A DNA stretch of 63,957 bases, the filler included, from Reclinomonas americana ATCC 50394 (lineage: Eukaryota), in assembly GCA_048213135.1 (NCBI GenBank). It is 16 parts of 16 records of this genome, joined end to end, with 100 filler letters (N's around TTAATTAATTAA, not from the genome) between each part and the next. Parts side by side here need not be neighbours in the genome. Positions count along the whole stretch, not along the records: positions 1 to 8,492 come from AFZH01016987.1; positions 8,593 to 18,644 come from AFZH01016988.1; positions 18,745 to 20,579 come from AFZH01016991.1; positions 20,680 to 22,448 come from AFZH01016992.1; positions 22,549 to 31,745 come from AFZH01016993.1; positions 31,846 to 32,884 come from AFZH01016994.1; positions 32,985 to 36,000 come from AFZH01016995.1; positions 36,101 to 37,897 come from AFZH01016996.1; 8 more parts are not named here. The stretch is one strand, 5' to 3'. Below, one piece after another: positions 947-51,558 of the stretch. The notes beneath the pieces are model-generated. The model made no database searches, was not told the DNA's origin, and was given only the letters and a program-made list of their open reading frames with translations. Every line of letters begins with the position of its first letter. Position 1 is the first letter of the stretch. The position numbers were made by a program, and so were the translations under genes.

Positions 947-2017
947 ATGGCCTCCTCACCTCCTCCCCCCTCCCTCCCGTGCAAGTGCCTCCTTGGGCAC
1001 ACAGCCAGGGTGAATTCCGTGGCCATCACTCCCGACGGTCTGCACGTTGTGAGTGGCAGTGAGGACCGTACAATTCGAGTGTGGTCGCTGGCGAGTGGCA
1101 AGGAGGTACAGCGGCTGGAGGGACACACTGACGAGGTGAATTCTGTCGCCGTCACTCCCGACGGTCAGCGTGTTGTGAGTGGGGGCGATGACTACACAGT
1201 GCGTGTTTGGTCGCTGGCGACAGGGGAGGAAGTGCGACGGCTGGAGGAACATGCAGAGAAAGTGCACAAGGTCGCCGTCACTCCCGATGGTCAGCACGTT
1301 GTGAGTGGCAGTCAAGACCACACGGTGCGTGTGTGGTCCATGGCGAGTGGAGAGGAGGAGCGGCGGGTGGCCGGCAATGTCACTGGCGATGGCCAGCACG
1401 TGATCACCGTGGGCGAGGACGGTGTGCGCTGTGTGCGGTCGCTGGCGAGTGGAGAAGAAGTGCGACGGCTGCAGCACGCCGAGAGAACATTCTCCTTCAC
1501 GGTTGCTCCCGATGGGCAGCACTGTGTGAGCGGAAGCTATGAGAAGACATTGATTGTGTGGTCACTGGCGAGTGGCGAGGAGGTGCGACGGTTGGCAGGG
1601 CATAGGGGGTGGGCGACAGCCATCAAGGTTACTCCCGATAGCCAGCATATTGTGAGTGGCAGTCATGATGCGACAGTGCGTGTGTGGTCAATGGCGAGTG
1701 GAGAGGAGGTGCGACGACTGGTGGGGCACGCGGGCATTGTGTACTCTGTGGCTGTCACCCCCGATGGTCAGCACATTGCGAGCGGCAGCAGGGACAACAC
1801 TGTGCGCGTGTGGTCCACACCGTACGGCCTCGCCCGACTGGAGCTCGATTGTGCGCGCTCGACCATGCGTGCGGTGCAGGAGATGCAGCGTGGGAGCGAA
1901 GAGGAAGAGGAGGAGGATCCGCGTTGCCTCCCGGAGCTGGTGCTGCGCTGCTTCCTGGTCGAGGAGGCCGCGGTCGTTCTGCACCGCTCGCGCACCGACC
2001 CGAGCCTTCGACTGTGA
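947..2017 (+). CDS. WD40 family paralogue A1 (7 WD40 repeats + conserved C-terminal module), intronless
   Basis: ORF from MASSPPPPSLPCKCL; 7 GH..V.SVAVTPDG.HVVSGS.D.TVRVWSLASG repeats (4th shortened); tail ELDCAR..VQEMQ..DPRCLPELVLRCFLVEEA..LRL. Confidence 0.93.
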   Translation: MASSPPPPSLPCKCLLGHTARVNSVAITPDGLHVVSGSEDRTIRVWSLASGKEVQRLEGHTDEVNSVAVTPDGQRVVSGGDDYTVRVWSLATGEEVRRLEEHAEKVHKVAVTPDGQHVVSGSQDHTVRVWSMASGEEERRVAGNVTGDGQHVITVGEDGVRCVRSLASGEEVRRLQHAERTFSFTVAPDGQHCVSGSYEKTLIVWSLASGEEVRRLAGHRGWATAIKVTPDSQHIVSGSHDATVRVWSMASGEEVRRLVGHAGIVYSVAVTPDGQHIASGSRDNTVRVWSTPYGLARLELDCARSTMRAVQEMQRGSEEEEEEDPRCLPELVLRCFLVEEAAVVLHRSRTDPSLRL

Positions 2018-2072
2018 ATGTGGTTTTTCCTTGCTCGCTTTCTCGTTTCCTCTTCATCGCTCGTGGTCTGTA

Positions 2073-2172
2073 CTGCCTCGCGGAGATCGCGCTTTGCTGC
2101 TTCCTGATCGAGAAGGCAGACAGGCAGAGGTCGTACTTTAACTCTGTTCTACCGACGCCAGCCTCCGTGTGA
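2073..2172 (+). repeat. Degenerate duplicate of the WD40-gene C-terminal tail
   Basis: Translates CLAEIALCCFLIEKA...; ends gcctccgtgtga like the gene end gccttcgactgtga. Confidence 0.8.
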
Positions 2173-2359
2173 ATGTCTGCGTTTTTCTTCAGGCTTTCTG
2201 TTCCTTCAGGGAATGAGCTCTCTTCGTCTTGGGTGTATCATACATAGTAGAACTTGCAGCTGCAGAGCGCAGTGCACTTCCACTGCGAAATAATCGTCGA
2301 CGTCGTCCGCAATCATCGTCCCTCATCATTTCACGTCACTTCTCGCACGTGCGCACACA

Positions 2360-3445
2360 ATGGCCTCCCCAGCTCCTCCCCCCACTCTCGCATGCAAGTG
2401 CCTCCGTGGGCACACCAATTCCGTGCACTCTGTCACCTTCACTCCCGATGGCAAGCACATTGTGAGCGGCAGCTGGGACGAGACTTTGCGTGTGTGGTCA
2501 CTAGCGAGTGGGGAGGAGGTGCGACGACTGCAACACAGTTACTTGATAGCGTCTGTCGCTGTCACTCCCGATGGTCGGCATGTTGTGACTGGGAGCGCTG
2601 ATTCGATCGTGCGAGTGTTTCCGCTGGCGAGTGGAGAGCAAGTTCGCCAGTTGGTGGGGCACACCAAGGAGGTATACGCAGTCGCCGTCACTCCCAACTG
2701 TGAGTACATTGTGAGCGGCAGTCAAGACAAGACAGTGCGAGTGTGGTCACTGGCCAGTGGACAACAAGTGCGGCTGGTGGAGGGGCACGCAGACTCGGTA
2801 AACTCTGTCGCTGTCACTCCCGATGGCCTGCACGTTGTGAGTGGCAGCTGTGACATGACTGTGCGTCTGTGGTCACTGGCGAGTGGAAAGGAGGTGCGGC
2901 GGTTTGCGGGAGACATCGGATGGGTGACATCTGTCGCCGTCACTCCCGATGGCCAGCACATTCTATCATGGAGCAGTGACACAACAGTACGCGTGTGGTC
3001 GCTGGCGAGTGGCGACGAGGTGCGACGTCTGGAGGGACATACCAAGTGGGTGCGATCTCTCGCACTTACTCCCGATGGTCTGCACTTTTTGACTGGCAGT
3101 GGAGACAGCATCGTGCGAGTGTGGTCCATGGCGAGTGGTGAGGAAGTGCGACGACTGGAGGGGCACACAGACGCAGTACTCTCTATCGCCGTCACTCCAG
3201 ATGGCCAGCACATTGTCAGTGGCAGTAGTGCCGAGACCGTGCGAGTATGGTCAACGCCGTGCGGCCTCGCTCTGCAGGAACTGGATTGTGCGCGTGCGGC
3301 CATGCGCGCGGTGCAGGAGATGCAAGGAGGAGACGACGAGTATGATCTGCGCTGCCTGCCGGAGATCGTGCTCCGCTGCTTCATGGTCGAGGAGGCCGAG
3401 GTGGTCCTGAATCGCTGCTCCACCGACCCGAGCCTCCGATTGTGA
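2360..3445 (+). CDS. WD40 family paralogue A2
   Basis: 361-aa ORF, 7 WD40 repeats, same leader and tail. Confidence 0.93.
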   Translation: MASPAPPPTLACKCLRGHTNSVHSVTFTPDGKHIVSGSWDETLRVWSLASGEEVRRLQHSYLIASVAVTPDGRHVVTGSADSIVRVFPLASGEQVRQLVGHTKEVYAVAVTPNCEYIVSGSQDKTVRVWSLASGQQVRLVEGHADSVNSVAVTPDGLHVVSGSCDMTVRLWSLASGKEVRRFAGDIGWVTSVAVTPDGQHILSWSSDTTVRVWSLASGDEVRRLEGHTKWVRSLALTPDGLHFLTGSGDSIVRVWSMASGEEVRRLEGHTDAVLSIAVTPDGQHIVSGSSAETVRVWSTPCGLALQELDCARAAMRAVQEMQGGDDEYDLRCLPEIVLRCFMVEEAEVVLNRCSTDPSLRL

Positions 3446-3480
3446 ATGTGGGTGTCTCTCTTTGTTTGCTTGCGGTCTGC

Positions 3481-3579
3481 GTTCTCCCAGGGATTGTTGT
3501 GCTGCGTTACCTCTTGATTGATGTGGCAGAGGTGGTCCTGAATCGCTGCTCCTTCGCCGACGCCAGCCTCCGACTGTGA
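3481..3579 (+). repeat. Degenerate duplicate of C-terminal tail
   Basis: Translates VVLRYLLIDVAEVVLNRCSFADASLRL*; shares gaggtggtcctgaatcgctgctcc with the A2 tail. Confidence 0.85.
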
Positions 3580-3787
3580 ATGTTGGTTTTTTCTTTGTTT
3601 GTTTTCTCGTTTTCTCTTACCCGCTTGTGGCTGGCCGAATCCATTTGCTCGCCAGTGTACGGTGTGGAGTGTAGTAGAACCTAGTGTTGCGGAGCGTGTC
3701 GCCCTTTCCACTCCGAAACCACGTCGACGTCGACCGCAAAGAAATGTCCCTTCACATCATCTCGTTCTCGCACGTGCGCACACAACG

Positions 3788-4861
3788 ATGGCCTCCCCAG
3801 CCCCTCCCCCCTCCCTCCCGTGCAAGTGCCTCCGTGGGCATTCTGGTATGGTGATCTGTGTCGCTGTCACTCCCGACGGTCAGCACGTGGTGAGTGGGGG
3901 CAGTGATGGAACAGTTCGAGTGTGGTCACTGGCAAGTGGCGAGGAGGTGCAACGGCTGGAGGGACACACTGGCTGGGTGTGGTCTGTCACCGTCACTCCC
4001 GACGGTCAGTACGTGGTGAGTGGTGGCGAAGATAAGACTGTGCGAGTGTGGTCACTTGCGAGTGGAGAAGAAGTGCGTCGGCTGGAGGGACACACTGGCT
4101 GGGTGTGGTATGTTGCCGTCATTGCTGATGGTCAGCTCCTGGTGAGCGGAAGCGACGACAGGACTATTCGAGAGTGGTCACTGGCGAGTGGAAAACAAGT
4201 GCGACGGTTCGAGTTGGATTCCGGCACTCTCACTCCCGATGGCCGCTTCATTGTGGGTGTGAGCGGGGACGGAACAGTCGGTGTGTGGTCGCTGGCGAGT
4301 GGAGAAGAAGTGCGACGAGTGAAGCGCACCACCAAAGTCTTCTCCATCACGGTCACCCCCGATGGCCAGCATTGTGTGAGTGCAAATGACGACAGGACGG
4401 TGAGCATGTGGTCACTGGCGAGCGGAGAAGAGGTGCAACGGTTGGAAGGGCACGTGAAGTGGGTGACGATTGTCACCGTTACTCCCGATGGTCTGTACAT
4501 ACTGAGTGGCAGTCAAGACGCGACGGTGCGTATGTGGTCCGTCTTGACGGGGAAGGAAGTGCGACGATTGGAGGGGCACTCGGGCGCAGTGCTGTGTATT
4601 GTCGTCACCCCCAATGGCGAGTGCATTGTGAGTGGGAGCAATGACAATACTGTGCGCGTGTGGTCCACACCATGCGGCCTTGCTCGGCAGGAACGCGATT
4701 GTGCGCGCGCGGCAATGCACGCTGTCCAGGAGATGCTGGAGGAGGAGGAGGAGGATGAAGATCCTCGTTGTCTCCCGGAGCTGGTGCTCCGCTGCTTCCT
4801 GGTCGAGGAGGCCGCGGTCGTTCTGCATCGCTCCAACGCCGACCCCAGCCTCCAATTGTGA
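3788..4861 (+). CDS. WD40 family paralogue A3
   Basis: MASPAPPPSLPCKCL start; 7 repeats (4th shortened); conserved tail. Confidence 0.93.
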   Translation: MASPAPPPSLPCKCLRGHSGMVICVAVTPDGQHVVSGGSDGTVRVWSLASGEEVQRLEGHTGWVWSVTVTPDGQYVVSGGEDKTVRVWSLASGEEVRRLEGHTGWVWYVAVIADGQLLVSGSDDRTIREWSLASGKQVRRFELDSGTLTPDGRFIVGVSGDGTVGVWSLASGEEVRRVKRTTKVFSITVTPDGQHCVSANDDRTVSMWSLASGEEVQRLEGHVKWVTIVTVTPDGLYILSGSQDATVRMWSVLTGKEVRRLEGHSGAVLCIVVTPNGECIVSGSNDNTVRVWSTPCGLARQERDCARAAMHAVQEMLEEEEEDEDPRCLPELVLRCFLVEEAAVVLHRSNADPSLQL

Positions 4862-4912
4862 ACGTGGAGCTTTCTCTTTGCTTGCTTTCTCGTTTCTCCC
4901 TTTCCGCTCGTG

Positions 4913-5007
4913 GTCCGTGTTGCCTCTCGGAGATTGTTGTGATGTTTGTTGGTCGAGGAGGCCGCAGACGTTCTGCATCGACCCCCAGTCTCCGACGTCG
5001 ACTGTGA
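4913..5007 (+). repeat. Degenerate duplicate of C-terminal tail
   Basis: PCCLSEIVV / LVEEAADVLHR remnants ending cgactgtga, frameshifted. Confidence 0.8.
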
Positions 5008-5404
5008 ATATTTGCGCCACGAAATCCTTTTGAGGCCAACACGCGTTTGATTGACTTTGCCTCCTGAAAGGGAAGATGACTATTGGAGAAGTAATTATGT
5101 GTTTGTATACTGTTGGTGTGCCAAGGTCATTGTCGGCAAGGGATTTGTGGGCGTTTATCGCATTGTTGGAATGTGGTGAATGAAGTGTTTTGATTGTGTG
5201 GTGTTTCTCAATTTGCTTTATTGCAGTCTTTCTGTTTTTTCGTTGTGGGTGGCATGTGCTCTCTTCTCGGGTGTTTAATATATAGTAGAACTTGGTGTTG
5301 CAGAGCGTGTCGCCCTTCCACTCCGAAACAACGTCGACGTCGTCCGCATAGAAAGTGTCCCCTGTACATCTCACTCGTCGTTCTCGCCAGTGCGCGCACA
5401 CACG

Positions 5405-6502
5405 ATGGCCTCCCCAGCCCCTCCCCCCTCCCTCCCTTGCAAGTGCCTCCGTGGGCACACCAAATCCGTGCACTCCGTGGCCATCACTCCCGATGGCCAG
5501 CACATTGTGAGCAGTGATGTGACTGTGCATGTGTGGTCACTGGCGAGTGGCGAGGAGGTGCGACGGTTGGAGGCGCACACTGGATCGATAGGGTCTGTCG
5601 CGGTCACTCCTGATGGGCAGTACGTGGTGACCGGGAGCACTGATTCATTCGTGCGGGTGTGGTCGCTGGCGAGTGGCGAGGAATTGCGACGAATGGAGGG
5701 ACACATTGCAGAGGTGCGGTCGGTCGCCGTCACTCCCGATGGTCACCACATTGTGAGTGGTGGTGGAGACAACACAGTGTTGGTGTGGTCGTTGGCGAGT
5801 GGACAAGAAGTGCGGCAGCTGGAGGGTCACACAATGACGGTAAACTCTGTCGCCGTCACTCGCGATGGCCTGCACGTTGTGAGTGGGAGTTGGGACAAGA
5901 CTGTGCGTGTGTGGTCACTGGCGAGTGGAAACGAAGTGCGACGCTTGGAGGGACACACTGGATGGGTGTTCGCCGTCGCCATCACCCCCGATGGGCAGTT
6001 CATTGTGAGTGGGGGCGGCAGTGGTGACAACACAGTGCGAGTGTGGTCACTGGCGAGTGGCGAGGAGGTGCGACGACTGAAGCTGCAGAGCAGTTGGGTG
6101 GCGTCTGTCGCCGTTACTCCGGATGGCCAGCACATTGTTAGTGGGAGTGGCCTTCCGGGCAACACAGTGCAACTGTGGTCACTGGCGACTGGAGAGGAGG
6201 AGCGACGGTTGGAGGGGCACACGGGTGTGGTGTGGTCGGTTGTCGTCACTCCCGATGGCCAACGCATTGTCAGCGGAAGTGACGACAGTACTGTGCGCGT
6301 GTGGCTCACACCATACGGCCTCGCTCAGCTGGAGCTCGATTGTGCGCGTTTGGCCGTGCGCGCTGTGCAGGAGATGCAGCGTGCGGGCGAAGAGGATGAA
6401 GATCCTCGTTGTCTCCCGGAGCTAGTGCTCCGCTGCTTCCTGGTCGAGGAGGCCGCGGTCGTTCTGCATCGCTCGCGCACCGACCCGAGCCTACGACTGT
6501 GA
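5405..6502 (+). CDS. WD40 family paralogue A4
   Basis: MASPAPPPSLPCKCL start; 7 repeats; conserved tail. Confidence 0.93.
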   Translation: MASPAPPPSLPCKCLRGHTKSVHSVAITPDGQHIVSSDVTVHVWSLASGEEVRRLEAHTGSIGSVAVTPDGQYVVTGSTDSFVRVWSLASGEELRRMEGHIAEVRSVAVTPDGHHIVSGGGDNTVLVWSLASGQEVRQLEGHTMTVNSVAVTRDGLHVVSGSWDKTVRVWSLASGNEVRRLEGHTGWVFAVAITPDGQFIVSGGGSGDNTVRVWSLASGEEVRRLKLQSSWVASVAVTPDGQHIVSGSGLPGNTVQLWSLATGEEERRLEGHTGVVWSVVVTPDGQRIVSGSDDSTVRVWLTPYGLAQLELDCARLAVRAVQEMQRAGEEDEDPRCLPELVLRCFLVEEAAVVLHRSRTDPSLRL

Positions 6503-6862
6503 ATGTTGGTTTGCTTTCTTGCAGGCTTTTCTCTTGTGTGCGCATATTGTAGAACCCGGTGTTGCTGTTACTCACGATGGAGATCACGGCCACTGATCAG
6601 GTGATTGGTATTGCGAAGCCAGGCTGCCTCGGCCACCCTGTTGGCGTACTCGCTACTGTCAAGCCCTCAACTTATTCGATATCAGCGTTCCTGACATCGA
6701 TGTCCCTTGGGTCCGATCGCTTCCGCCATACAAAAAAAGCTCCTGCGGCATTGACAGTCTCACATCATTGTTCTCCAGATCAGTAAGAACCCACTGCTGG
6801 CGACAGCACGCACAAGAAACAAGTTGTCCTGCTCCTTTCAATCAGTCTGTGAGAGAGCGATC

Positions 6863-9518
6863 ATGCCTCCTGGTGGCCCCCGCGCAACTCACGATGCCCA
6901 CACTGACACTGCCACTAACGGCAACAACAGTGTGATCCACACACGACTCACAGAAGACGATGTGGAGGATGGGCAGCTTACGTTTGACACGCCGACCTCT
7001 TCTTCCACCACAGCAGCAGCGGCAACGAAACGCGAAGAGAATGGCAGTAGAGTGGCACTTGACATGCGGGAAAAGGTGACCGCGTGTCGCATCCAACGAG
7101 GGTGAGTGACTGTGAGTGCGCGCGAAAACAACACGCTCATGGCAGTTGGCATATCATCATCATCTTGTCATGTTTTCCTCATTGTTTCGTGTTCATCACC
7201 TCTCTCACACAGGACGATCAATGTGTTCTTGTTGGGCTTGTCGTTCCTCTTTGTGTTTTATTGCTTTGCCCCGACGCAAGTTGAGTTGTTTGTGCAACTG
7301 ATCGCCAGTTGGAAGAGATGTGCGGAAAGAGCAGCGATTCTTTGTCAGTGGGAGGGAAAGGGAGAGAGAGGAGAGAGAGGAGAGAGAGGGAGGGGGGAAG
7401 AGGGTGACTGGTGATCGCGATCAGAGACAACTGAGATGCGGAGATGCGAAGGAAGCATGAGAGAGAGAGAGAGAGAGACGCAATGCGATGGGCAGGTGCT
7501 TGAAGAGTCGCAGTTTGTCGGGCACGCAGTGACAACTGAGATGTGGAGATCCATGAGGAGTGAGAGTTGTTGAGAGCGAGTGTTGGGCGATCGCAGGCGC
7601 AGAGGGAGGTTCGGGAGCAGCGATTCTGTCGTCTCGAGAGTGTTTGGCGCGGTCAGTGATGAGCAAGCAGTTCGTCAGCGAGGTGACAAGGCAGTTGGCA
7701 GGGGATTCTGGCATGACTGGCACGTCGTGACAACTCAAATTGTGGAGAGGGTTCCGCGAGCTGTGAGTGCAATGGAAAACGAGGCGCGGGGATGCTGAAG
7801 AAGCGATTCTCTCGCATGCAAGAGCAAGTGTGTGAGTAACTGAAAGAGCGAGAGAGAGAGAGGGAGACAGAGTCAGTTGCACTTCAGAATCGCCGCACAT
7901 ATCTTTCTCCGCGTCAGGCATTGTGCATCGTGATGGTGGCGGGAGTTGACTCATGAATGCCCTTGCAGTCCTACATGACCAAGCTGAATGCCGATTTGGG
8001 ATTTGCCAGCATGGCGATGTTGTATCTGGTATTTGGGTTTGCCTCTCTCGGCGCGCCGTGGGTCATCAAGAAGCTGGGAATCAGGTGCGGTGTGATGCTC
8101 TGCTGGCTGGCTCTCCCACGTCTCACATCTGCTCTGAATGATTGCAGACTGGCGCTCATTGTTGCCGCTGTGCCGTACATTGTGTACGCGCTGGCATGCA
8201 TTCCGGCCACGCCATTCACCTTGCTGCCGGCGTCGTTTATTATCGGACTGGGTGGTGAGTCACCGGCTAGGTGTAGGGCACTCACTGGGCAAGCGCCCGT
8301 TTCAGCAGTTCCTGTCGTCTTTTCTTTTTGCGCGTCTCCGTGTCGCATGACTGTTTCCGTGTTACGACTGTGCTCTCCCAGTATCGCTGATGCATGCTCC
8401 TTTTGCCGCTGCTTCTCCATGTGTCCTTTTGCTCGCTTTCCTTGTCACCGCCGCTTGCCCGGGTCGCGTACTCTCTCTCTCTCTCTCTCTCTNNNNNNNN
8501 NNNNNNNNNNNNNNNNNNNNNNNNNNNNNNNNNNNNTTAATTAATTAANNNNNNNNNNNNNNNNNNNNNNNNNNNNNNNNNNNNNNNNNNNNCTCTCTCT
8601 CTGCCTCTCCCTCTCTCTGACTCTCTCTTTCTCTCACTTAGTGGCGTTCTTGTATTTGTTCCCAGAGCTGTGACACTCGCGTCGCTCTCGTGCTCAATGT
8701 TTCACACCGCCTTCTCTCCATCTCCATTCACCCCTTCATCAACTTCCCTCATTCCACCCTTCCCCCACCAGGCGCCGTGCTGTGGACATCGCAAGGCGAG
8801 TACCTGGCTGGTGCCTCTGACCCCGCCACCGTCGGCTTCCTCTCCGGACTGGTACGCCGCTTGCTCTCTTCCTTCTCCCCTTCCTCGTTCTCACTCGCCC
8901 GCAGTTCTTCGCACTATTGCAAATCGGCTGCCTTGCGGGCAACGTCAGCGTGAGCGCCCTCGTGTCGCTGGATGTGCCGGTGGCCTCGGTGTTTTTGATT
9001 CTGGCCGTCGTCGGCTGTGTGGGCCTTGTGGTCATGTTCTTCTTGGGGTGCGTGCACTTTCATGTGTGATCTGCTCCTCCCAGCGCATTGTCAGGTTGCT
9101 CATGCCCTTCTCCATTTTCCACTCACACTTCTCGACCCAGCCGCATCGACGGGGACACTGCGGTCAAGTCGGAACGGTCACCAAAGGCAATTTTCTCGCT
9201 CTTTGTGCGCAAGGACTTTGCGCTGCTGCAGGGAGTAATTATGCTTGGCGGCATTAGTCAGGTGAGAGAACTGCTTGTTGCTTCGCTTGTTGTTTCTTCC
9301 CGCTCACGGTCTGTATTGTCTGTGCGTCAGTCGCTGTACAGCGGCAAGTACCCACCGACGCTGGCGACGGAGCATGTGGGTCTCTTTGCTGCCGTGATTG
9401 CCATTGCGTCCATCGTAGGTGAGGCGCGGGGAAAGGAGATGGAGAGGGAAGGGAGTGCGAGAGGGTGAGGGTGAAGGAGTTTTGAGAGGGTGGGAGAGGA
9501 CAAGTGAGAAAATCGCCC

Positions 9519-9578
<60 letters not shown>

Positions 9579-10647: not shown

Positions 10648-10781
10648 GTGGGGGACGGTGGTAGGCTTTTAGATGTTAGAAAAACTGTGCAGAAACGAAA
10701 GGAAAAATATTAGGAGTGTTAAAAAAAAGGATGGAATGCCTGTGTACTATGTTGATCTAAAAGAGCGGTGTATGATTATAT

Positions 10782-13026: not shown

Positions 13027-13087
<61 letters not shown>

Positions 13088-13548
13088 CTCTTCTTTCCTT
13101 TCATTGCATCTCTCTTGCCTTGCCTCCTCTGCCATTCTCTTCTCATTCCCTCACTCACTCCTCTCCTTTGACTACAACTCTCCTCCCCTTGCACAGCATC
13201 TGTCTCTCCTCTCTCTCACTCACTCACTCTCTTCTCCTTTGACTGCTGAGTGAGACAGAGACAGGGACAAGAGATGAGAAAGAAGATCATGCTTTCTCTC
13301 TCTTCTTCTCCTCTCCTTTGACTACAACTCCTCCCCTTGCACATCATCTGTCTCCTCCCTCACTCACTCTCCTTTCCTTCCCCTGCATCTCTCTCTCTGT
13401 CTCTCATCGCACCTGCATCTTCCGCATCTCCTGCAGGCACATACAGATGCTTCTTCTCCCAGAACTCCTGCAGGAAGTGCTGCGGAGCAATGGGGTGGAG
13501 AAGCCACGAGAAAACGCGGTATTCGTGGCTTTCAGAGGCAGCAGACAT
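10782..13548 (-). CDS. RIOX1: NO66/MINA-type JmjC ribosomal oxygenase (cupin_4), multi-exon
   Basis: FLQEFWEKKHLYV, CSVRLLRPQ, NSYWTPAASQ|GFAPHSDDVDVYILQIEGRKTWHLY, PGDLLYLPRGMVHQA, SLHVTVS (HxD...H iron triad). Confidence 0.88.
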
Positions 13549-13681
13549 CGATCTTGGCAAACAAGACAGGACACAGACAGAGGATGTGCTGTACTTCTTC
13601 TGTGGTCTTTAATGCTTGGTTAACATGGGAAGCCGAGTTCAGCGTAAAAGGGAAGGAAAGCTGAGTGGGGTTAAGGAACGA

Positions 13682-36137: not shown

Positions 36138-36198
<61 letters not shown>

Positions 36199-36201
36199 GA
36201 G

Positions 36202-36249
<48 letters not shown>

Positions 36250-37625: not shown

Positions 37626-40683
<3,058 letters not shown>

Positions 40684-42657: not shown

Positions 42658-43725
42658 ATGACCACCTTCTTCCCTCGCATGTGCATACACGGGCACACGC
42701 AACCCGTAAAGTGTGTCGCCGTCACTCCCGACGGTCAGCACGTGGTGAGTGGCAGTCAAGACAAGACTGTGCGAGTGTGGTCGCTGGCGAGTGGTGTGCC
42801 AGTGAGATTGCTGGAGGGGCACACTGATATGGTGTGGTCTGTTGCGGTGACTCGTGACGGGCGACACGTTGTGAGTGGGAGTGAAGACAACACAGTGCGT
42901 GTGTGGTCGCTGGTGAGTGGAGAAGGAGACGAGGTGCGACGGTTGGAGGGACACACTGCTGCGGTGATGTCTGTCGCCGTCACGCCCACTGGAGAGTTTA
43001 TTGTGAGTGGGAGCTATGACAAGACAGTGCGAGTGTGGTCGCTGGCGAGTGGCGCGGAGGTGCGACGATTCGAGGATCGCGGCTATGTGCGATCTGTCGC
43101 CGTCACTCACGACGGTGAGCGTATCGTGAGCGGAGGCAGTGATGGCGACGTGCAAGTGTGGTCTGTGGCGAGTGGGGAGGAGGTGCGACGGTTGAAGGGT
43201 CACGCACACTGGTTGTGGTGCGTTGCCGTCACCCCCAATGGTGAGCACTTGGTGAGTGCGAGTTATGACAAGACAGTGAGCGTGTGGTCGCTGGCGAGTG
43301 GCGAGCAGATGCAACGGTTGCAAGGGCACACTTCAGTGGTGACCTCGGTCGCCGTCACTCCCGACGGTCGGCACATTGTGAGCGGCAGTCAAGACGAAAC
43401 AGTGCGAGTGTGGTCGCTGGCGAGTGGGGAAGAGGTGTGTCGGTTGGAGGACCATCACAGTGGTGCGGTGTATTCAGTTGCCGTGACTCCCGACGGGCAG
43501 CACATTGTGAGTGGGCGCGGGGATAGAGCTGTGCGAGTGTGGTCGACTCCGTACGGCCTCGCACGGCAGGAGGTCGATTGTGCGCGCAAGGCTTTGCGCG
43601 ATGTGCAGGAGATGCAAGAAGAGGAAGAAGAGGATCTACGTTGCCTCGCGGAGATCGCATTGCGCTGCTTCCTGGTCGAGGAGGCCGAGATGATTTGCCA
43701 TCGCAGCTTCAGTCTGTGCTTGTGA
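42658..43725 (+). CDS. WD40 family paralogue C1
   Basis: MTTFFPRMCIHGH; 7 repeats; tail EVDCARKAL..RCLAEIALRCFLVEEA. Confidence 0.92.
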   Translation: MTTFFPRMCIHGHTQPVKCVAVTPDGQHVVSGSQDKTVRVWSLASGVPVRLLEGHTDMVWSVAVTRDGRHVVSGSEDNTVRVWSLVSGEGDEVRRLEGHTAAVMSVAVTPTGEFIVSGSYDKTVRVWSLASGAEVRRFEDRGYVRSVAVTHDGERIVSGGSDGDVQVWSVASGEEVRRLKGHAHWLWCVAVTPNGEHLVSASYDKTVSVWSLASGEQMQRLQGHTSVVTSVAVTPDGRHIVSGSQDETVRVWSLASGEEVCRLEDHHSGAVYSVAVTPDGQHIVSGRGDRAVRVWSTPYGLARQEVDCARKALRDVQEMQEEEEEDLRCLAEIALRCFLVEEAEMICHRSFSLCL

Positions 43726-43890
43726 TTGCAGGATTCTTCTTTCGCTTTTCTCTCGTTTTGCTGTGTAGTACCGTAGTGTAATACCAAGATGCTTGCGAGC
43801 TCGAAGCGAGTTCTCGTTGTACTCGTCTTCGAGTGTCCCTTTCCATTCCCTGTCCTGTCCCCCATCTTGCACACTACACACGCACACTCC

Positions 43891-44976
43891 ATGGCTTCCG
43901 CGCGTCCCTTTCTCTCGTGCAGATGCTTGCGCGGGCACACCATGAGCATATCCTCTCTGGCACTCACTCCCGACGGCCAGCACATTGTGAGTGGCAGTGC
44001 AGACCAGACGGTGCGGGTGTGGTCACTGGCGAGTGGAGCTGAGGTGCATCTGCTGGACGGACACTTTGATTCGGTGTCGTCTGTCGCTGTGACTCCCGAT
44101 GGCCAGCACATTGTCAGTGGCAGTCAAGACAGCACAATGCGTGTGTGGTCCATGTCGAGTGGACAACAGGTGCGACGGCTGCTGGGGCACACTTGCAAAG
44201 TGCTATCTGTCGCCGTCACTCCCAATGGTGAGCACATTGTGAGTGCGAACGGGGACCAGACAGTGCGCGTGTGGTCCCTGGCGACCGGTGAGGAGGTGCG
44301 ACGGCTGAAGGATCCTTACATGGTGCGATATGTAGCCGTAACTCCCGACGGTCAGCATGTTGTCGGTGGGAGTGTTGGTCGGTTTGTGCAAGTGTGGTCA
44401 CTGGCAAGTGGCGAAGAGGTGCGGCGATTGGGGCCGCACTTGGACATATTGACGTGTCTGGCTGTCACTCCCGACAGTCACTACATTGTGAGCGGTAGTC
44501 TTGACAGGAAAGTGCGAGTGTGGTCTCTGGCGAGTGGGGAGGAGGTGCGACGGATGGAGGGGCGCGCGCATGCTGTGTTTTGCGTCGCGGTCACCCCCAG
44601 TGGCCGACACATTGTGAATGCGAGTGGATTTGACAACGCGGTGCGGGTGTGGTCGCTGGCGAGTGGCGAAGAAGTGTGTCGGTTGGAGGGGCACACGTAT
44701 GCCGTGAGTGCTGTCGCCGTCACTCCAGACGGTGAACACATTGTGAGCGGAAGCGATGACCTCACCATACGAGTGTGGTCCACTCCCTACGGCCTCGCTC
44801 GGCAGGAGCTCGACTGTGCGCGCAAGGCTTTGCGTGCCGTGCAGGGGATGCAAGAAGAGGAGGGCGAGGTTGAAGATTCACGCTGCCTGCCGGAGTTGGC
44901 ACTGCGCTGCTTCCTGGTCGAAGAAGCCGAGGTCGTTGTCTATCGCTGCTTCAGCGACTCGAGTCTCTGCCTGTGA
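43891..44976 (+). CDS. WD40 family paralogue C2
   Basis: MASARPFLSCRCL; 7 repeats; conserved tail. Confidence 0.92.
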   Translation: MASARPFLSCRCLRGHTMSISSLALTPDGQHIVSGSADQTVRVWSLASGAEVHLLDGHFDSVSSVAVTPDGQHIVSGSQDSTMRVWSMSSGQQVRRLLGHTCKVLSVAVTPNGEHIVSANGDQTVRVWSLATGEEVRRLKDPYMVRYVAVTPDGQHVVGGSVGRFVQVWSLASGEEVRRLGPHLDILTCLAVTPDSHYIVSGSLDRKVRVWSLASGEEVRRMEGRAHAVFCVAVTPSGRHIVNASGFDNAVRVWSLASGEEVCRLEGHTYAVSAVAVTPDGEHIVSGSDDLTIRVWSTPYGLARQELDCARKALRAVQGMQEEEGEVEDSRCLPELALRCFLVEEAEVVVYRCFSDSSLCL

Positions 44977-45040
44977 TTCCAGGATTCTTCTTTTCTTTTC
45001 GCGTAGTGTAATACCAAGATACTTACGAGTTCTCGTTGTA

Positions 45041-45428
45041 AACTAATTTGTTGCCAGCAGGAGAAGGCCAGTTGGCACAGTTGAAACCAGACATTGTGGC
45101 TGTTACTCGAGCAGGTCCAGGTGTCGATGCACAGGTGACGAAGGTGCTGATTGTGGAGCTCACCGTGGCGTACCCGAAGGACGAAGATGCGCTGCAGAAG
45201 GCGTACGACCGCAAGTTGGTGAAGTATGCCGAGCTGGTGGAGAAGATCCGAACGCACACTGAAGCGGTGGTTACGTACGTGCCGATTGTTTTCACTCAAG
45301 TTGGANNNNNNNNNNNNNNNNNNNNNNNNNNNNNNNNNNNNNNNNNNNNTTAATTAATTAANNNNNNNNNNNNNNNNNNNNNNNNNNNNNNNNNNNNNNN
45401 NNNNNATTATTGAATGATGTGTTTTGTG
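45041..45428 (+). mobile_element. 5'-truncated RLE-type non-LTR retrotransposon inserted in the C2-C3 spacer (spans a gap)
   Basis: KPDIVAV..VLIVELTVAYP..AYDRKLVKYAELV..VPIVFTQVG; flanks rejoin to the uninterrupted spacer seen at 43810-43835. Confidence 0.85.
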
Positions 45429-45498
45429 TCGTCTTCGAGTGTCCCTTTCCATTCCGTGTCCTGCTCCCCATCTTGCACACGTACTATACGCACACTCC

Positions 45499-46596
45499 AT
45501 GACCTGCACTCCTCCCTTGTTCTCATGCAGATTCTTGCACGGACACACCAACTGTGTGATGTCTGTCGCCATTACCCCCGATGGCCAGCATGTTGTGAGT
45601 GGCAGTGCAGACACCACCGTGCGGGTGTGGTCACTGGCGAGTGCAATGGTAGTACGACGATTGGAGGGGCACACTCAGGGGTTGCGGTCTGTCACTGTCA
45701 CTCCCGATGGTGAGCACGTTGTGAGTGCGGGTGATGACAAGACGGTGCGGGTGTGGTCACTGGCGAGTGGAAAGGTGGTGCGAGTATTGGAGGGACACAC
45801 GAGCGTTGTGCTGTCTGTCGCCATCACTCCAAGTGGAGAGTACATCGTCAGCGTGAGCGTTGACAGCACAGTGCGAGTGTGGTCACTTGCGAGTGGAAGG
45901 GAAGTGCGGCGATTTGAGGGTCACCCGCGGCCGAATGTGTTTTCGCATTCTGTCGCCGTCACTCCCGATGGTGAGTTCATCGTGGGTGGAGGCAGTGATA
46001 GCAATGTGCGAGTGTGGAGTTTTGCAAGTGGCGAAGAGGTGCGCCAGCTGAAGGGTCACACGCACTGGGTGGTTTCTGTTGCCCCAACTCCCGACGGTCA
46101 GTGCATCGTGAGTGGATGTGTTGACAGCATAGTGCGAGTGTGGTCTCTCGCAAGTGGAGAGGAGGTGCGACGGATGGAGGGACACGCTGACCACGTGATG
46201 TGCGTGCGCGTCGCCGTGACCCCCAATAGCACCTACGTTGTGAGCTGCAGTGCGGACAGTACAGTGCGCTTGTGGTCGCTGACGAGCGGGAGCGAAGTGT
46301 GCCGACTAGATGGACAGGCTTCTCGTATGTTATCTGTCGCCGTGACTCCCGACGGACAGCACGTTGTGAGTGGGTGCGGGGATAGAGGTATTCGAGTGTG
46401 GTCCACGCCATGCGGTCTCGCTCGGCAGGAGCTCGACTGTGCGCGTAAGGCTTTGCGTGCTGTGCAGGAGATGCAAGAGGATGAAGGAGAGGAGGATCCA
46501 CGCTGCCTGCCGGAGTTGGTACTGCGCTGCTTCCTGGTCGAGGAGGCCGGGGTCATCGTCCATCGTTGTTTCACCGACGAGCGTCTCCGTTTGTGA
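45499..46596 (+). CDS. WD40 family paralogue C3
   Basis: MTCTPPLFSCRFL; 7 repeats; conserved tail. Confidence 0.92.
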   Translation: MTCTPPLFSCRFLHGHTNCVMSVAITPDGQHVVSGSADTTVRVWSLASAMVVRRLEGHTQGLRSVTVTPDGEHVVSAGDDKTVRVWSLASGKVVRVLEGHTSVVLSVAITPSGEYIVSVSVDSTVRVWSLASGREVRRFEGHPRPNVFSHSVAVTPDGEFIVGGGSDSNVRVWSFASGEEVRQLKGHTHWVVSVAPTPDGQCIVSGCVDSIVRVWSLASGEEVRRMEGHADHVMCVRVAVTPNSTYVVSCSADSTVRLWSLTSGSEVCRLDGQASRMLSVAVTPDGQHVVSGCGDRGIRVWSTPCGLARQELDCARKALRAVQEMQEDEGEEDPRCLPELVLRCFLVEEAGVIVHRCFTDERLRL

Positions 46597-46775
46597 TTGT
46601 GAAGTTTTCTTTCTTTTTCGCCTCTTCGTTTCTTGTTGCGAGTTGCGTGTCATGTGATGCTCGTCTAGCTGCAATGTACAGCCTTGTAGCGCTCTGTGAT
46701 GATAAAGAACGACTCAAAAAGTGGCTCGACGTTCGACAATCAGTCCTCAATCACAATCAGTCTTCCGGCCGCGCC

Positions 46776-47867
46776 ATGGCCTCCACTCCCCCATCTCTCC
46801 CATGCAGGTGCCTGCGCGGCCACACTGCCAACGTACTCTCTCTTGCCGCCACCCCCGACGGCCACTCCATCGTGAGCGGGAGTCGTGACGACACTGTGCG
46901 CATGTGGTCACTGGCAAGTGGCGAGGAAGTGCAACAGCTGCAGGGACACACTGGCGCGGTGACCTGTGTCGCCATCACTCCCGATGGTCAGCACATTGTT
47001 AGTGGGAGTGGAGACAGCACAGTGCGAGTGTGGTCCGTGGCGCGAGGGGAAGTGGTGCGCCAGTTGCGCGGACATGCCGACAACGTGCGTTGTGTGGCCG
47101 TCACCCCCGATGGTCAGCATGTGGTGAGCGGAAGCAGTGACAAGACCGTGCGAGTGTGGTCACTGGCGAGTGGAAGGGAGGTGCGACGGCTGGAGGGGCA
47201 CACTGGATGGGTGTCGTCGGTCGCCGTCACCCCTGATGGTCAGCACGTGGTGAGTGCGAGTGCTGACGCGTCAGTGCGAGTGTGGTCGCTGGCGAGTGGG
47301 AAGATGGTGCGGCGGTTGGCGGGAGACGCCAATGTGGTGTGCTGCGTCGCCGTCACTCCCGACGGTCGGCATGTGGTCGGTGGCGGGAGTGTTGACATGG
47401 CGGTGCGCGTGTGGTTGCTGACGAGTGGAGAGGTGGTGCGGCGGCTGGAGGGACACACGGGTACGGTGCTGTGTGTCGCCGTCACTGCCAATGGTCAGCA
47501 CGCGGTGAGTGCGAGTCAAGACGGCACCGTGCGAGTGTGGTCTCTGGCGAGCGGCGAGGAGGTGCAGCGATTGGAGGAGCACTCAAAGGGGGTGTTGTCT
47601 GTCGCTGTCACACCCGATGGCCAGCGCATCATCAGTGCGAGTTACGACGAGACAGTGCGGGTGTGGTCGCCGACGCCATGTGCGCTCGCTCGGCTGGAGC
47701 TCGACTGCGCGCGATTGGCCATGCGCGCTGTGCAGGAGATGCAAGAGGATGAAGGAGAGGAGGAGGACCCACGCTGCCTGGTGGAGATCGTGCTCCGGTG
47801 CTTCTTGGTCGAGGAGGCCGAGGTCATCGTCCATCGTTGTATCGCCGACGAGAGTCTCCATTTGTGA
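46776..47867 (+). CDS. WD40 family paralogue C4
   Basis: MASTPPSLPCRCL; 7 repeats; conserved tail. Confidence 0.92.
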   Translation: MASTPPSLPCRCLRGHTANVLSLAATPDGHSIVSGSRDDTVRMWSLASGEEVQQLQGHTGAVTCVAITPDGQHIVSGSGDSTVRVWSVARGEVVRQLRGHADNVRCVAVTPDGQHVVSGSSDKTVRVWSLASGREVRRLEGHTGWVSSVAVTPDGQHVVSASADASVRVWSLASGKMVRRLAGDANVVCCVAVTPDGRHVVGGGSVDMAVRVWLLTSGEVVRRLEGHTGTVLCVAVTANGQHAVSASQDGTVRVWSLASGEEVQRLEEHSKGVLSVAVTPDGQRIISASYDETVRVWSPTPCALARLELDCARLAMRAVQEMQEDEGEEEDPRCLVEIVLRCFLVEEAEVIVHRCIADESLHL

Positions 47868-48047
47868 TTGTGAAGTATCTAATCCTTTTCGCCTCTTTGT
47901 TTCTTGTTGCGAGTTGCAAGTCATATGATCCTCGTCTAGCTGCAATGTACAGCCTTGTAGCGCTCTGTGATGATAAAGAACGACCCATAGTGGCTCGACG
48001 TTTGACAAACAAAATGTCCTCCTCAATCACAGTCTTCCGGCCGCGCC

Positions 48048-49221
48048 ATGACCTCCACTCCCCCTTCGCTCCCCTACAGGTGCTTGTGTGGACACACAGG
48101 CACCGTAACTTCACTTACTGTGACTCCCAACGGTCAGCGCGTTGTCAGCGGCAGTGGAGACAGCACGGTGCGGGTGTGGTCACTGGCAAGCGGCAAGGAG
48201 GTGCAACGACTGGATGGGCATGCTGACTGGGTGCGGTCTGTGGCCCTCACACCCGATGGTCAGCACTTAGTGAGCGCAAGTGAGAGAGTAGTGCGTGTGT
48301 GGTCGCTGGCAAATGGAGAAGAAGTGCGACGATTGGAAGGACACACTAACTGGGTGCTCACTGTCGCCATCACCCCCGATGGCCAGCACATCGTGAGTGG
48401 GAGCGGGGACAAGACTGTGCGGGTGTGGTCGTTGGCGAATGGGGAGGAGTTGCGGCAACTTCAAGGACATGAGGGATGGGTGATGTCGGTCGCTGTTACT
48501 CCTGATGGTCAGCACGTGGTGAGTGGAGGCACGGACGACACAGCACATGTGTGGTCTCTTTCAAGTGGAGAACAAGTTCGATGCTTGAGGGGACACACCA
48601 ACCCGATAATGTCCGTCGCCGTCACTCCCGATGGCCAGCATGTCGTGTGCGGCTGTGACGACAATACGATTCGGCTGTGGTCACTGGCCAGTGGAGAGCA
48701 AGTGCGAAAGATGGTGGGGCACACCGCTGCGGTGGTGTGTGTGGCCGTCACTTGCAGCGGCCGTCACATAGTCAGCGGGAGTAACGATATGACTGTTCGA
48801 GTATGGTCTGTGGAGAGTGGCGAAGAAGTGCTCCGGTTGGAGGGGCACACTGGAAGGGTGTATTCACTTACCGTCACTCCTGATGGCCAGCACATCATCA
48901 GCGGAAGTCGAGACAAGACAGTGCGAGTGTGGTCCACGCCGTACGGACTCGCTCGGGAGGAGCTCACCGGTGCGCGATTGGCCTTGGATGCTGTGCAGGA
49001 GATGCAGGAGGAAGAGGGCGGACAGGANNNNNNNNNNNNNNNNNNNNNNNNNNNNNNNNNNNNNNNNNNNNTTAATTAATTAANNNNNNNNNNNNNNNNN
49101 NNNNNNNNNNNNNNNNNNNNNNNNNNNGGATCCACGCTGCCTGGTGGAGATCGTTCTGCGCTGCTTCCTGGTCGAGGAGGCCGAGGTCGTTGTCTATCTT
49201 TGTAACAGTCTACGTTTGTGA
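48048..49221 (+). CDS. WD40 family paralogue C5 (gap filler sits inside the tail)
   Basis: 7 repeats; ..EEEGGQE|gap|DPRCLVEIVLRCFLVEEAEVVVYLCNSLRL*. Confidence 0.88.
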
Positions 49222-49414
49222 TTGTCAAGTTACCTTTCCTTGTTCGCCTCTTTGTTTCTTGTTAGCATCATGTGCACCATCTGCTGCTCATCTAGCTGCA
49301 ATGTAAGCCGTGCAGCGTCTCCTGACGGACCACATCGTCTTGACGTTCACATGTCCGCCTCATCGTCCTCACTCCGTCTCCCGTCTTCATTCGCGAACAC
49401 AACAAACGTGAATC

Positions 49415-50497
49415 ATGGCCTCCACTCCTCCATCTCTCCCCTGCAAAAGCCTGGGAGAGCACACTGCCAATGTGCTGTCTCTTACCATCACGCCCGACGG
49501 CCAGCACCTGGTGGGCGGGACTGAGAACACCGTGCGTGTGTGGTCACTCACGAGCGGAGAAGAAGTGCGACAATTGGAGGGGCACTTTGGTCTGGTGCTC
49601 TCTGTCGCACTCTCCCCCAATGCCCAGCACGTGGTGAGCGGAAGCACAGACAAGACAGTGCGTGTGTGGTCGCTGGCGAGTGGCAAGCTTGAGCAAATGT
49701 TGGAGGGACACGTGAATTCGGTGTACTCGGTCGCTGTCTCTGCAGACGGTCAGCACATCGTCAGTGGGAGTGTGGACTCTACAGTGCGAGTGTGGTCCAT
49801 GTCGAATGGCGAGGAAGTGCGGCGGCTGCAAGGACACACGGGTTGGGTGTTCACAGTTGCCGTCACTCTAGACGGACAACACGTTGTGAGTGGCGGGACT
49901 GATACGACCGTTCGTGTGTGGTCCTTGGCGAGTGGTGAGGAAGTGCGACGGTTGGAGGGTCACACCGGAGGGGTGCTGTCGGTTGCCGTCACTCGCGATG
50001 GCCAGCACATTGTGAGCGGCGGTTACGACAATACGATTCGGCTATGGTCACTTGGCAGCGGAGAGGAGGTGCGGAGGATGGTAGGCCACACTGCTGCAGT
50101 GGTGTGTCTGGCCGTCACTTCCGGTGGTCGTCACGTGGTCAGTGGTAGTAAGGATATGACAGCGCGAGTGTGGTCACTGGAGAGTGGCGACGAAGTGCTC
50201 CGGTTGCAAGGGCACACTGGAAGCGTGCTTTCCGTTGTCATGACTCCCGACGGCCAGCACATCATCAGCGGGAGTCGAGACAAGACTGTGCGAATGTGGG
50301 CCACGCCGTACGGACTCGCTCTGGAGGAGCTCACCGGTGCACAGTCGGCCCTGGGTGTTGTGCAGGAGATGCAAGAGGAAGAGGGCGAGCAGGAGGATCC
50401 ACGCTGCCTGGTGGAGATCGTTCTGCGCTGCTTCCTGGTTGAGGAGGCCGAGGTCGTTGTCTATCGCTGTCTCACTGACGAGAGTCTCCGTTTGTGA
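49415..50497 (+). CDS. WD40 family paralogue C6
   Basis: 360-aa ORF; 7 repeats; tail variant ELTGAQSAL. Confidence 0.92.
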   Translation: MASTPPSLPCKSLGEHTANVLSLTITPDGQHLVGGTENTVRVWSLTSGEEVRQLEGHFGLVLSVALSPNAQHVVSGSTDKTVRVWSLASGKLEQMLEGHVNSVYSVAVSADGQHIVSGSVDSTVRVWSMSNGEEVRRLQGHTGWVFTVAVTLDGQHVVSGGTDTTVRVWSLASGEEVRRLEGHTGGVLSVAVTRDGQHIVSGGYDNTIRLWSLGSGEEVRRMVGHTAAVVCLAVTSGGRHVVSGSKDMTARVWSLESGDEVLRLQGHTGSVLSVVMTPDGQHIISGSRDKTVRMWATPYGLALEELTGAQSALGVVQEMQEEEGEQEDPRCLVEIVLRCFLVEEAEVVVYRCLTDESLRL

Positions 50498-50689
50498 TTG
50501 TGAAGTTGCTTTCCTTTTCGCCTCTTTATTTCTTGTTGCGATTTGCGTGTATCATATAGGCTGCAATGTAAAGCCATGCAGCGCCCTGCGATGATGAAGA
50601 AACATTCGTCGACGTCGTGACTCGACGTTTGACAAAAATGATGTCCTCCTCAATCACCAATTCCGTCTCCGATCTCCTCTCCGCGCGCA

Positions 50690-51558
50690 ATGACCTCCAC
50701 TCCGATCTCCACTCCCCCATCTCTCCCAAGCAGGTGCCTGTGTGGGCACACAAGCACCGTTACTACGGTGACGGTGGCTCCCGACGGGCAGCGCATTGTC
50801 AGCGGCAGTGGGGACCGAACTGTGCGGGTGTGGTCACTGGCAAGTGGCAAGGAGGTGCAACGGCTGGATGGGCATGCTGATTTGGTGCGGTCTGTGGTCA
50901 TCACACCCGATGGTCAGCACCTAGTGAGCGCAAGTGAGAGAGCAGTACGTGTGTGGTCGCTGGCAAGTGGAGACGAAGTGCGACGATTGGAAGGACACAG
51001 CAGTGTGGTGTGGTCGGTTGCTGTTTCCGCAGACGGTCAGCACATTGTGAGTGGAAGTGCGGACTATACAGCACGAGTGTGGTCCGTAGCGAGTGGCGAG
51101 GAAGTGCATCTGCTGAGAGGAAACAACAATCGCTGGGTGTTTTCCGTTGCCTTTACTCCCGACAGCCAGTTCGTTGTGAGTGCGAGTCACGACAGAAGTG
51201 TACGAGTGTGGTCCCTAGCGAGTGGAGAGGAGGTATGGCGGTTTGCGGGAGACACCGGATGGGTGTGGTGTGTTGCCGTCACTCCCGATGGCCAGTATGC
51301 GGTGAGCGGGTGCAATGATGGTACAGTGCGCGTGTGGTCACTTGGCAGCGGAGAGCAAGTGCAAAAGATGGTGAAGCACACTGCTGCGGTGGTGTCTGTG
51401 GCCGTCACTTGCAGTGGCCGGCACGTGGTCAGCGGGAGTGAGGATATGACTGTGCGAGTGTGGTCACTGGAGAGTGGCAAGGAGGTGCTCCGGTTCGAGG
51501 GGCACACTGGCAAGGTGACGTCTGTCGCAGTCACACCGGATGGCCAGCACATTATCAG
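50690..51558 (+). CDS. WD40 family paralogue C7 (3' end in gap)
   Basis: MTSTPISTPPSLPSRCL; repeat 7 runs into the gap. Confidence 0.88.

Follow-up and report, generated by a model that had tools for sequence, protein, structure and literature searches.

Results

Three tandem clusters of WD40 genes

We analyzed a 63,957-nucleotide stretch of DNA (the window) from the jakobid Reclinomonas americana ATCC 50394 (assembly GCA_048213135.1), which carries a family of genes for small WD40-propeller proteins with a common C-terminal tail. A tblastn search of the window with one copy as the query returned 11 stretches on the plus strand and 10 on the minus strand, the rest of the window being without a match. 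Joined across reading frames and gaps, these stretches correspond to 19 paralogues, c01 to c19, in three clusters: four genes on the plus strand (947-6502), eight on the minus strand (13682-22829) and seven on the plus strand (42658-51558). Listing ATG-started open reading frames (ORFs) under the standard code gave 17 long ORFs that share one protein plan: a product of approximately 360 amino acids consisting of a proline-rich leader, seven WD40 repeats and a tail of 64-66 amino acids. Each copy is a single uninterrupted ORF, and the spacers between copies are 148-543 bp long.

Thirteen copies are intact ORFs of 355-366 amino acids. In the first cluster (plus strand) these are c01 (947-2017), which has the leader, seven WD40 units, of which blade 4 is degenerate, and the tail, followed by c02 (2360-3445), c03 (3788-4861) and c04 (5405-6502). 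In the second cluster (minus strand) they are c05 (13682-14773), c06 (14942-16030), c08 (17496-18596), which was used for the structure model, and c11 (21114-22211). In the third (plus strand) they are c13 (42658-43725), whose leader and tail end are divergent, c14 (43891-44976), c15 (45499-46596), c16 (46776-47867) and c18 (49415-50497). Four further copies are cut only by assembly linkers. Two of these lie on the minus strand: c10 (20481-20965) comprises the first two blades and the tail end, its middle falling in the linker at 20580-20679, and c12 (22551-22829) comprises the first two blades and is cut by the linker at 22449-22548. The other two lie on the plus strand: c17 (48048-49221) is complete but for the linker at 49028-49127, within the acidic loop of the tail, and c19 (50690-51558) is cut in blade 7 by the linker at 51559-51658. 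The tails of c10 and c17 resume in frame past the gap. Only c07 and c09, both on the minus strand, are broken in the given sequence: c07 (16210-17316) has seven units and two frameshifts in the tail, which is readable in two frames, and c09 (18969-20304) has one frameshift in blade 7, with the tail intact in another frame.

The linkers account for all 30 runs of N in the window. There are 15 of them, of the form N44-TTAATTAATTAA-N44, the first at 8493-8592 with 14 further sites; they carry stop codons in all six frames and mark joins between contigs. The window is thus a scaffold, built from short contigs whose ends are in many cases (CT)n or (GA)n microsatellites. One stretch without a gap, 1-8492, holds all of c01-c04, and another, 8593-18644, holds c05-c08 along with a JmjC gene. 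The tandem arrangement is therefore real.

The first-pass annotation, made from the sequence alone, had proposed 19 paralogues in a 4+, 8-, 7+ layout, and both the tblastn stretches and the ORF listing bear this out. The short spacers that it described agree with those measured. It had also called some copies disrupted or mosaic; disruption holds for c07 and c09, whereas the four others are merely cut by linkers, and a mosaic copy was not found.

A seven-bladed propeller

A Pfam scan of three copies identified WD40 (PF00400) in all three, with seven stretches each (E = 2e-69 to 2e-74; 227-243 bits against a cut-off of 27). No non-propeller family was found in these three copies, and in particular no NACHT, HET, TIR or other effector domain, in line with the earlier proposal that the family lacks a NACHT domain. 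We then built a hidden Markov model (HMM) of the repeat unit from the window sequences and applied it to the 17 copies readable in one frame. It found exactly seven repeats in 17 of 17, as had been claimed for every complete copy. The protein starts 10-19 residues ahead of the first Gly-His pair.

An AlphaFold2 model of c08, based on a 15-sequence alignment, had a predicted local distance difference test (pLDDT) score of 90.7 and a predicted template modelling score (pTM) of 0.88. The model has 28 strands in seven four-stranded blades, followed by helices at residues 302-326 and 337-360. The propeller is closed and carries a near-invariant Asp-His-Ser-Trp tetrad (H13, S31, D35 and W41 of the repeat unit). 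Leader residues 11-14 form a strand, so that the Cys-containing end of the leader is the closing strand of blade 7. The first-pass annotation had described a leader ending in a Cys-containing motif; the leader and its cysteines are present, but they are not a separate motif, since in the model ..SLPCKCLRGH forms the β-strand that closes blade 7.

The closest structures were the designer protein WRAP-T (7big; Z = 48.6, root mean square deviation (rmsd) 1.0 Å, 38% identity) and the propellers of Thermomonospora (5yzv; Z = 48.3) and Nostoc (2ymu; Z = 48.3). Further matches included G-beta, Tup1 and WDR61, with WDR5 in the Foldseek list. All structural alignments stopped at model residue 300-304. 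At the sequence level, the 120 best matches listed from 5.8 billion proteins were 28-51% identical over 64-95% of the query, none of these 120 exceeding 51%, and were mostly cyanobacterial kinase-WD40 proteins. The WDxR motif of DCAF proteins was not found: positions 41-42 of the repeat are Trp-Ser in every blade that was scored, a single residue type being found among the 112 and 105 residues counted at the two positions.

A constant C-terminal tail

The tail is 64-66 amino acids long, has a mean column identity of 76% and can be aligned in all 13 intact ORFs, slightly longer than the conserved C-terminal tail of ~60 residues first noted. That of c08 (17499-17696, minus strand; 66 amino acids) illustrates its plan of helix, acidic loop and helix. 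The helices have a regular hydrophobic pattern. An LRCF motif is shared without change by 16 of 16 aligned tails, and 5-9 acidic residues fall within a 13-residue window that covers the acidic loop and the beginning of helix 2. Modelled alone, the tail formed a two-helix hairpin (H2-25 and H38-60; pLDDT 85.5). In the established WD40 topology, strand c exits on the bottom face; with the tail placed after strand c of blade 7, the variable top face would thus remain accessible. A type 1 peroxisomal targeting signal (PTS1) at the C-terminus was considered and rejected: the PTS1 rule is S/A/C-K/R/H-L/M, and the endings here vary (LRL, LQL, LCL, LHL, LRF) and lie outside it.

Searches with the tail gave no relative of known function. 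Pfam searches with all 13 tails at E up to 10 yielded noise (best E = 0.024), NCBIfam held no family covering the tail, and the best PDB sequence match, ribosomal eL34, had an E-value of 0.25. Foldseek with the tail model returned no match at E ≤ 0.001. VIA-align against 48,161 chains gave a top Z of 8.7, to generic α-hairpins within the stated background for helical models. Among metagenome contigs from JGI, 233 matched the tail pattern and none was confirmed; the same held for 30 matches in IMG/VR. The ESM Atlas gave no usable tail match, and a word-index search with residues 298-363 of one copy gave six candidates, none of which scored. A complex prediction for two copies of the tail had a score of 0.00 and the outcome 'no answer', which speaks neither for nor against such a complex.

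A profile of the 13 tails, a tool proposed at the outset, was run over 1.84 billion representative proteins and matched only three, with no prokaryotic match among them. The first, P0121 (E = 1e-24), is the 116-amino-acid product of the R. americana expressed sequence tag (EST) EC795383.1 in EukProt; it is 60-69% identical to the window copies, within the 50-74% protein identity found between paralogues. A relative of the family is thus transcribed in R. americana. The other two, P0122 and P0123, are Logan-contig proteins of 381 and 394 amino acids (E = 4.6e-6 and 1.8e-4, respectively); in the alignment of the tail against longer proteins, P0122 alone was recovered. Their propellers are just 22-28% identical to those of the window copies, yet they carry the same tail, which indicates that the tail is a module in its own right and older than this expansion. 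Judged from its sequence and predicted fold, it is a helical module belonging to no described family.

Variation and selection

We calculated the entropy of each position of the repeat unit over 119 blades. Values were 0 bits at W41 and S42 and 0.7-0.8 bits at H13, V17, S31 and D35. The most variable positions, 11, 14, 15, 16, 18, 34 and 36, had 2.5-3.8 bits. According to Wu et al. (2012), the WD40 top-face hotspots R1-2, R1 and D-1 correspond to repeat residues 16, 18 and 34, and the variable positions of the family include these published hotspots. Four-site hotspot combinations were nearly all different, with 109 distinct combinations in 112 blades.

Selection was evaluated from Nei-Gojobori counts and is reported as medians; codons and residues agreed without mismatch in 4850 comparisons. 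Over 136 gene pairs, the proportions of synonymous (pS) and nonsynonymous (pN) differences were 0.54 and 0.18 at scaffold sites and 0.68 and 0.62 at hotspot sites. For the tails (78 pairs), pS was 0.52 and pN 0.16, a pN/pS of approximately 0.3. In the closest pairs, scaffold dS (synonymous divergence) was about 0.49-0.7 and ω 0.18-0.32. Purifying selection clearly acts on the scaffold, its Asp-His-Ser-Trp tetrad included, and on the tail. The variable binding face and constant tail anticipated by the first-pass annotation are thus both supported: top-face hotspots at 2.5-3.8 bits, beside a constrained tail.

The identity between blades did not vary with their position in the propeller. For blades 2-7, between-gene identity was 0.56-0.62 for blades of the same index versus 0.55-0.61 for blades of different index. 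Blade 1, which bears the leader, is set apart (0.45-0.49 identity to the other blades). Within genes, mean blade identity was 0.55 (351 blade pairs). Of 118 blades compared with their nearest counterpart in another gene, 57 shared its index. Values of pS were likewise similar for same-index (0.54), different-index (0.55) and within-gene (0.55) blades, which indicates that divergence is near saturation. The paralogues are old. Since sites are saturated, positive selection cannot be demonstrated. Neither the blade identities, nor the pS comparisons, nor a self-comparison of the window gave any sign of HET-E-like concerted evolution or blade homogenization, and repeat number did not vary among the 17 readable copies.

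Birth-and-death turnover, also suggested in the first-pass annotation, looks slow: the closest pairs have a dS of ~0.5, most pairs are near saturation, and a single stretch of 279 nucleotides reaches ~92% identity. This stretch is shared by c10 and c12 (92.5% nucleotide identity). In the window self-comparison, no other pair of copies reached at least 85% nucleotide identity beyond ~145 nucleotides, nor did any pair of blades outside c10/c12 reach this level. The self-comparison was dominated by long CT/GA dinucleotide tracts in intergenic and intronic DNA (9521-9609, 31652-31745, 35812-36322, 38000-38294 and 62054-62212). It also revealed a 224-nucleotide inverted repeat of 95% identity outside the WD40 genes (45083-45305 versus 30002-30225), which may be a small mobile element, and an 81-nucleotide stretch of 89% identity between 22323-22401, upstream of c11, and 75-155, near the start of the window.

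Origin and spread of the copies

The copies share upstream sequence: a TCGACGT motif and, immediately ahead of the ATG, a (CA)n run. TCGACGT, often as CGTCGACGTCG, occurs 40-130 nucleotides before the starts of c01-c04, c06, c07, c12, c16, c17 and c19; three matches before c01 (863-926, plus strand) provide an example. It has 22 matches in the window, versus 11.9 expected by chance, and 16 of them lie within ~130 nucleotides upstream of 10 family starts. This shared upstream sequence is a candidate promoter or 5′ untranslated region element. Downstream, relics of the tail end (the last 18-27 residues) were detected on the plus strand at 2118-2171 and 3496-3576 (E = 0.023 and 3e-5, respectively), ~100 nucleotides past the stop of c01 and ~50 nucleotides past that of c02. 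They appear to be vestiges of unequal exchange where duplications meet. Together, the shared upstream sequence and the downstream relics point to amplification by tandem duplication at the DNA level.

The gene tree is star-shaped (median terminal branch, 0.41). Physical cluster maps onto it with two label changes, versus a mean of 8.2 in shuffled data, and as few changes were seen in none of 200 shuffles. This grouping by cluster supports spread by local duplication. The copies thus spread by old, local tandem duplication of DNA that included the upstream region, and not by repeated retroposition.

The founder is a separate matter. The G+C content at third codon positions (GC3) was 0.65 in the family (range 0.57-0.70) versus 0.82 (0.75-0.88) in 11 Pfam-matched exon pieces of neighboring genes. 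The lower GC3, the lack of introns and the cyanobacterial best matches at 28-51% identity are only hints of a foreign or retrocopy founder. The first two fit weak codon selection in weakly expressed genes equally well, the more so as copies of this age have had time to ameliorate. Insertion of giant-virus DNA was also considered and rejected: IMG/VR yielded no relative, and the copies lie on gap-free contigs with intron-containing host genes.

Genomic neighborhood

A Pfam scan of 264 stop-to-stop ORF pieces outside the family identified UNC-93, JmjC, MIP, short-chain dehydrogenase, FYRC, ERG4/ERG24, PROPPIN and Arf. The MIP aquaporin gene lies in pieces ~2 kb apart, and the short-chain dehydrogenase and ERG4/ERG24 genes each lie in two pieces; the ORF pieces of these three genes are separated by 0.5-2 kb. 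The window is an intron-containing eukaryotic nuclear region. The contrast drawn in the first-pass annotation between intronless copies and intron-containing neighbors is upheld by the single ORFs of the family beside these split genes. PROPPIN matches were found on opposite strands, at 57361-57516 (plus; E = 2.5e-8) and 60205-60561 (minus; E = 3.7e-15). These pieces adjoin the third cluster and belong to an unrelated gene or genes for a WD-like, autophagy-type propeller.

Discussion

Comparison with known systems

The family shares with HET-E, HET-D and HNWD of Podospora anserina its 42-residue consensus-type WD repeats and its multigene character. Paoletti et al. 2007 (PMC1805685) reported four positively selected HET-E/D codons, 7/9 and 25/27, on the interaction surface. 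The spacing is the same: 16/18 around V17 and 34/36 around D35 here, 7/9 around 8 and 25/27 around 26 there. In the same study, 69 HET-E/D repeats hold 55 combinations, compared with 109 in 112 blades here. The two differ in their architecture, HNWD/HET-E proteins having an N-terminal HET domain and a central NACHT NTPase, both absent from the window family, and the family having a constant C-terminal hairpin that is absent from the fungal HET-E proteins. They differ also in how their repeats evolve. HET-E repeats are up to 100% identical, evolve in concert and vary in number; the window blades are ~55% identical and fixed at seven, no repeat exchange was seen, and the paralogues are old. Thus, of the features of HNWD proteins, the family has the hypervariable top face, and has neither HET plus NACHT nor the high repeat identity and concerted evolution. 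In Hu et al. 2017 (PMC5587647), WD40 proteins are moderately repetitive at an internal identity of at least 0.4 and highly repetitive at 0.7 or above. By that cut-off, at 0.55, the family is moderately and not highly repetitive.

Prokaryotic-type propellers, such as Nostoc WRAP (2YMU) and that of Thermomonospora (5YZV), resemble the family in structure (Z ~48, rmsd 1.0-1.8 Å, 38-40% identity) and in their complete Asp-His-Ser-Trp tetrads. They are fused to kinase, STAND or peptidase domains, whereas the family consists of eukaryotic stand-alone single propellers with a leader and a tail; and their WD40 sequences are amplified as repeats within one gene, whereas here whole genes are amplified in tandem. 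Cullin-RING substrate receptors with WD40 propellers include the FBXW, WSB and DCAF families. Their logic, a variable WD40 face and one short constant helical module, is shared. The module of the window family differs in being C-terminal and in matching no F-box or SOCS-box model, and the repeats lack WDxR.

In jakobids, including R. americana, and in other organisms, Horvathova et al. 2021 (PMC8134430) described Gcp1-3, Pex7-like WD40 proteins that co-occur with a mitochondrial type II secretion system. The available description presents them as conserved families of orthologues near Pex7, several members of which bear a PTS1, and mentions neither tandem arrays nor this tail. It does not fit the window family, which on these grounds is probably distinct from Gcp1-3. 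The literature searched held no description of the present family, and the term WD40 has no occurrence in the Andalucia godoyi genome paper.

Proposed function and its alternatives

We favor, as somewhat probable, the reading that the clusters encode a lineage-restricted repertoire of specific binders or adaptors coupled through one common tail. Each gene specifies a small soluble protein built from a short, conserved proline-rich leader, a strand that closes the propeller, seven blades of the consensus WD40 type, and a constant α-hairpin with an acidic loop. Because the scaffold is constrained and the top-face positions differ in nearly every blade, each paralogue would offer its own ligand-binding surface on one common rigid platform. 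The tail that all copies share, possibly together with the leader adjoining it at blade 7, may couple them to one partner, assembly or location. Several points weigh against this proposal. The hotspots evolve at approximately the synonymous rate, which fits diversifying selection or a plain lack of constraint. Two copies are frameshifted, which could reflect sequencing errors, and the lower GC3 of the family could mean weak expression. Known occurrences of the family are limited to this window, a single EST and two Logan contigs. Lastly, Pfam, NCBIfam, PDB, Foldseek and VIA-align searches detected no relative of the tail with a known function, so the coupling of the tail to a common partner is purely our inference.

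More specific versions of a binder repertoire fare less well. By analogy, a role in immunity or allorecognition, or as E3 receptors, is possible. If the proteins served a ubiquitin ligase or a similar adaptor system as substrate receptors, their tail would act as a divergent F-box-, SOCS-box- or DDB1-binding-like box that plugs the propellers into one E3 scaffold. A variable WD40 face joined to one short, constant and constrained helical module would suit this, the ..LPEIVLRCF.. stretch of the tail is reminiscent of how an F-box begins, and similar behavior is seen in the expanded F-box families of nematodes and plants. Yet none of the 13 tails has an F-box, SOCS-box or other Pfam match even at E up to 10, no PDB sequence match was better than that to eL34, and fold searches list only generic α-hairpins, although a short, divergent box could escape all three kinds of search. 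Further, the repeats end in Trp-Ser and not in the WDxR of DCAF proteins, and the box would have to be C-terminal to the propeller and only ~30 residues long. We consider this version unlikely. The chances are a shade poorer for sensors of non-self, viruses or allotypes under diversifying selection, similar to HET-E/HNWD without NACHT and HET, with the tail as a signalling or death-effector adaptor. The HET-E/D-like geometry of variable pairs that flank a conserved residue 18 positions apart, the clustered multicopy genes with their constant tail, and a hotspot combination unique in nearly every blade would all be expected of such sensors. Against them, the Pfam scan of three copies showed no effector domain. 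Moreover, repeat number is fixed at seven in the 17 readable copies; blade identity is 0.55 and not 0.85-1.0, with a pS of ~0.55 both within and between genes and hence no concerted evolution; the paralogues are old; and positive selection is not demonstrable.

Two further explanations were considered. A bacterial-type WD40 gene could have arrived by horizontal transfer, or arisen as a retrocopy, been amplified, and now be drifting, its variable sites unconstrained and its products of little or no function. The lack of introns beside intron-containing neighbors, the GC3 of 0.65 versus 0.82, the mostly cyanobacterial kinase-WD40 proteins among the named best matches (120 listed), the prokaryotic or designer consensus propellers that are the closest structures, and the two frameshifted copies are all compatible with this history. 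Drift is nevertheless hard to reconcile with 13 intact ORFs that persist at a dS of at least 0.5, with a scaffold ω of 0.2-0.3 and a tail pN/pS of 0.3, the marks of long-term purifying selection, or with the transcription of a relative. Nor does a bacterial donor explain a tail that lacks a prokaryotic match among 1.84 billion representative proteins, and consensus-type WD40s match each other whatever their ancestry, so the match list reveals no donor. We judge this history improbable. Finally, contigs that were collapsed or duplicated in the assembly might give the appearance of 19 genes where there are only one or a few. The window is indeed built from contigs joined by 15 linkers, and c10 and c12 could be alleles or a recent duplicate. 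However, c01-c04 and c05-c08 each sit on a gap-free stretch, the remaining pairs differ by 26-50% in protein, and, c10/c12 aside, no pair reaches 85% nucleotide identity over more than ~145 nucleotides. An assembly artefact is therefore hardly credible.

Significance

Diversified repertoires of repeat proteins occur in fungi, plants, animals and bacteria, where they are usually tied to NLR/STAND or E3-ligase modules. In R. americana, which belongs to a protist lineage that has received little study, the same pattern of surface diversification is found on propellers that stand alone and carry a constrained helical module for which no relative has been described. It is conceivable, though we would not expect it, that jakobids possess a propeller-only recognition repertoire without NOD/STAND components, in which dozens of sensors, each with a unique face, signal through a new α-hairpin that recruits or assembles a common effector. 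If true, this would mean that one of the deepest eukaryotic lineages had independently evolved a diversified system of intracellular receptors. If the genes prove to be ordinary paralogues, they remain a clear case in nature of one stable consensus WD40 scaffold that bears many different faces. The partner of the tail, if found, would define a new adaptor domain and tell what these dozens of binders serve.

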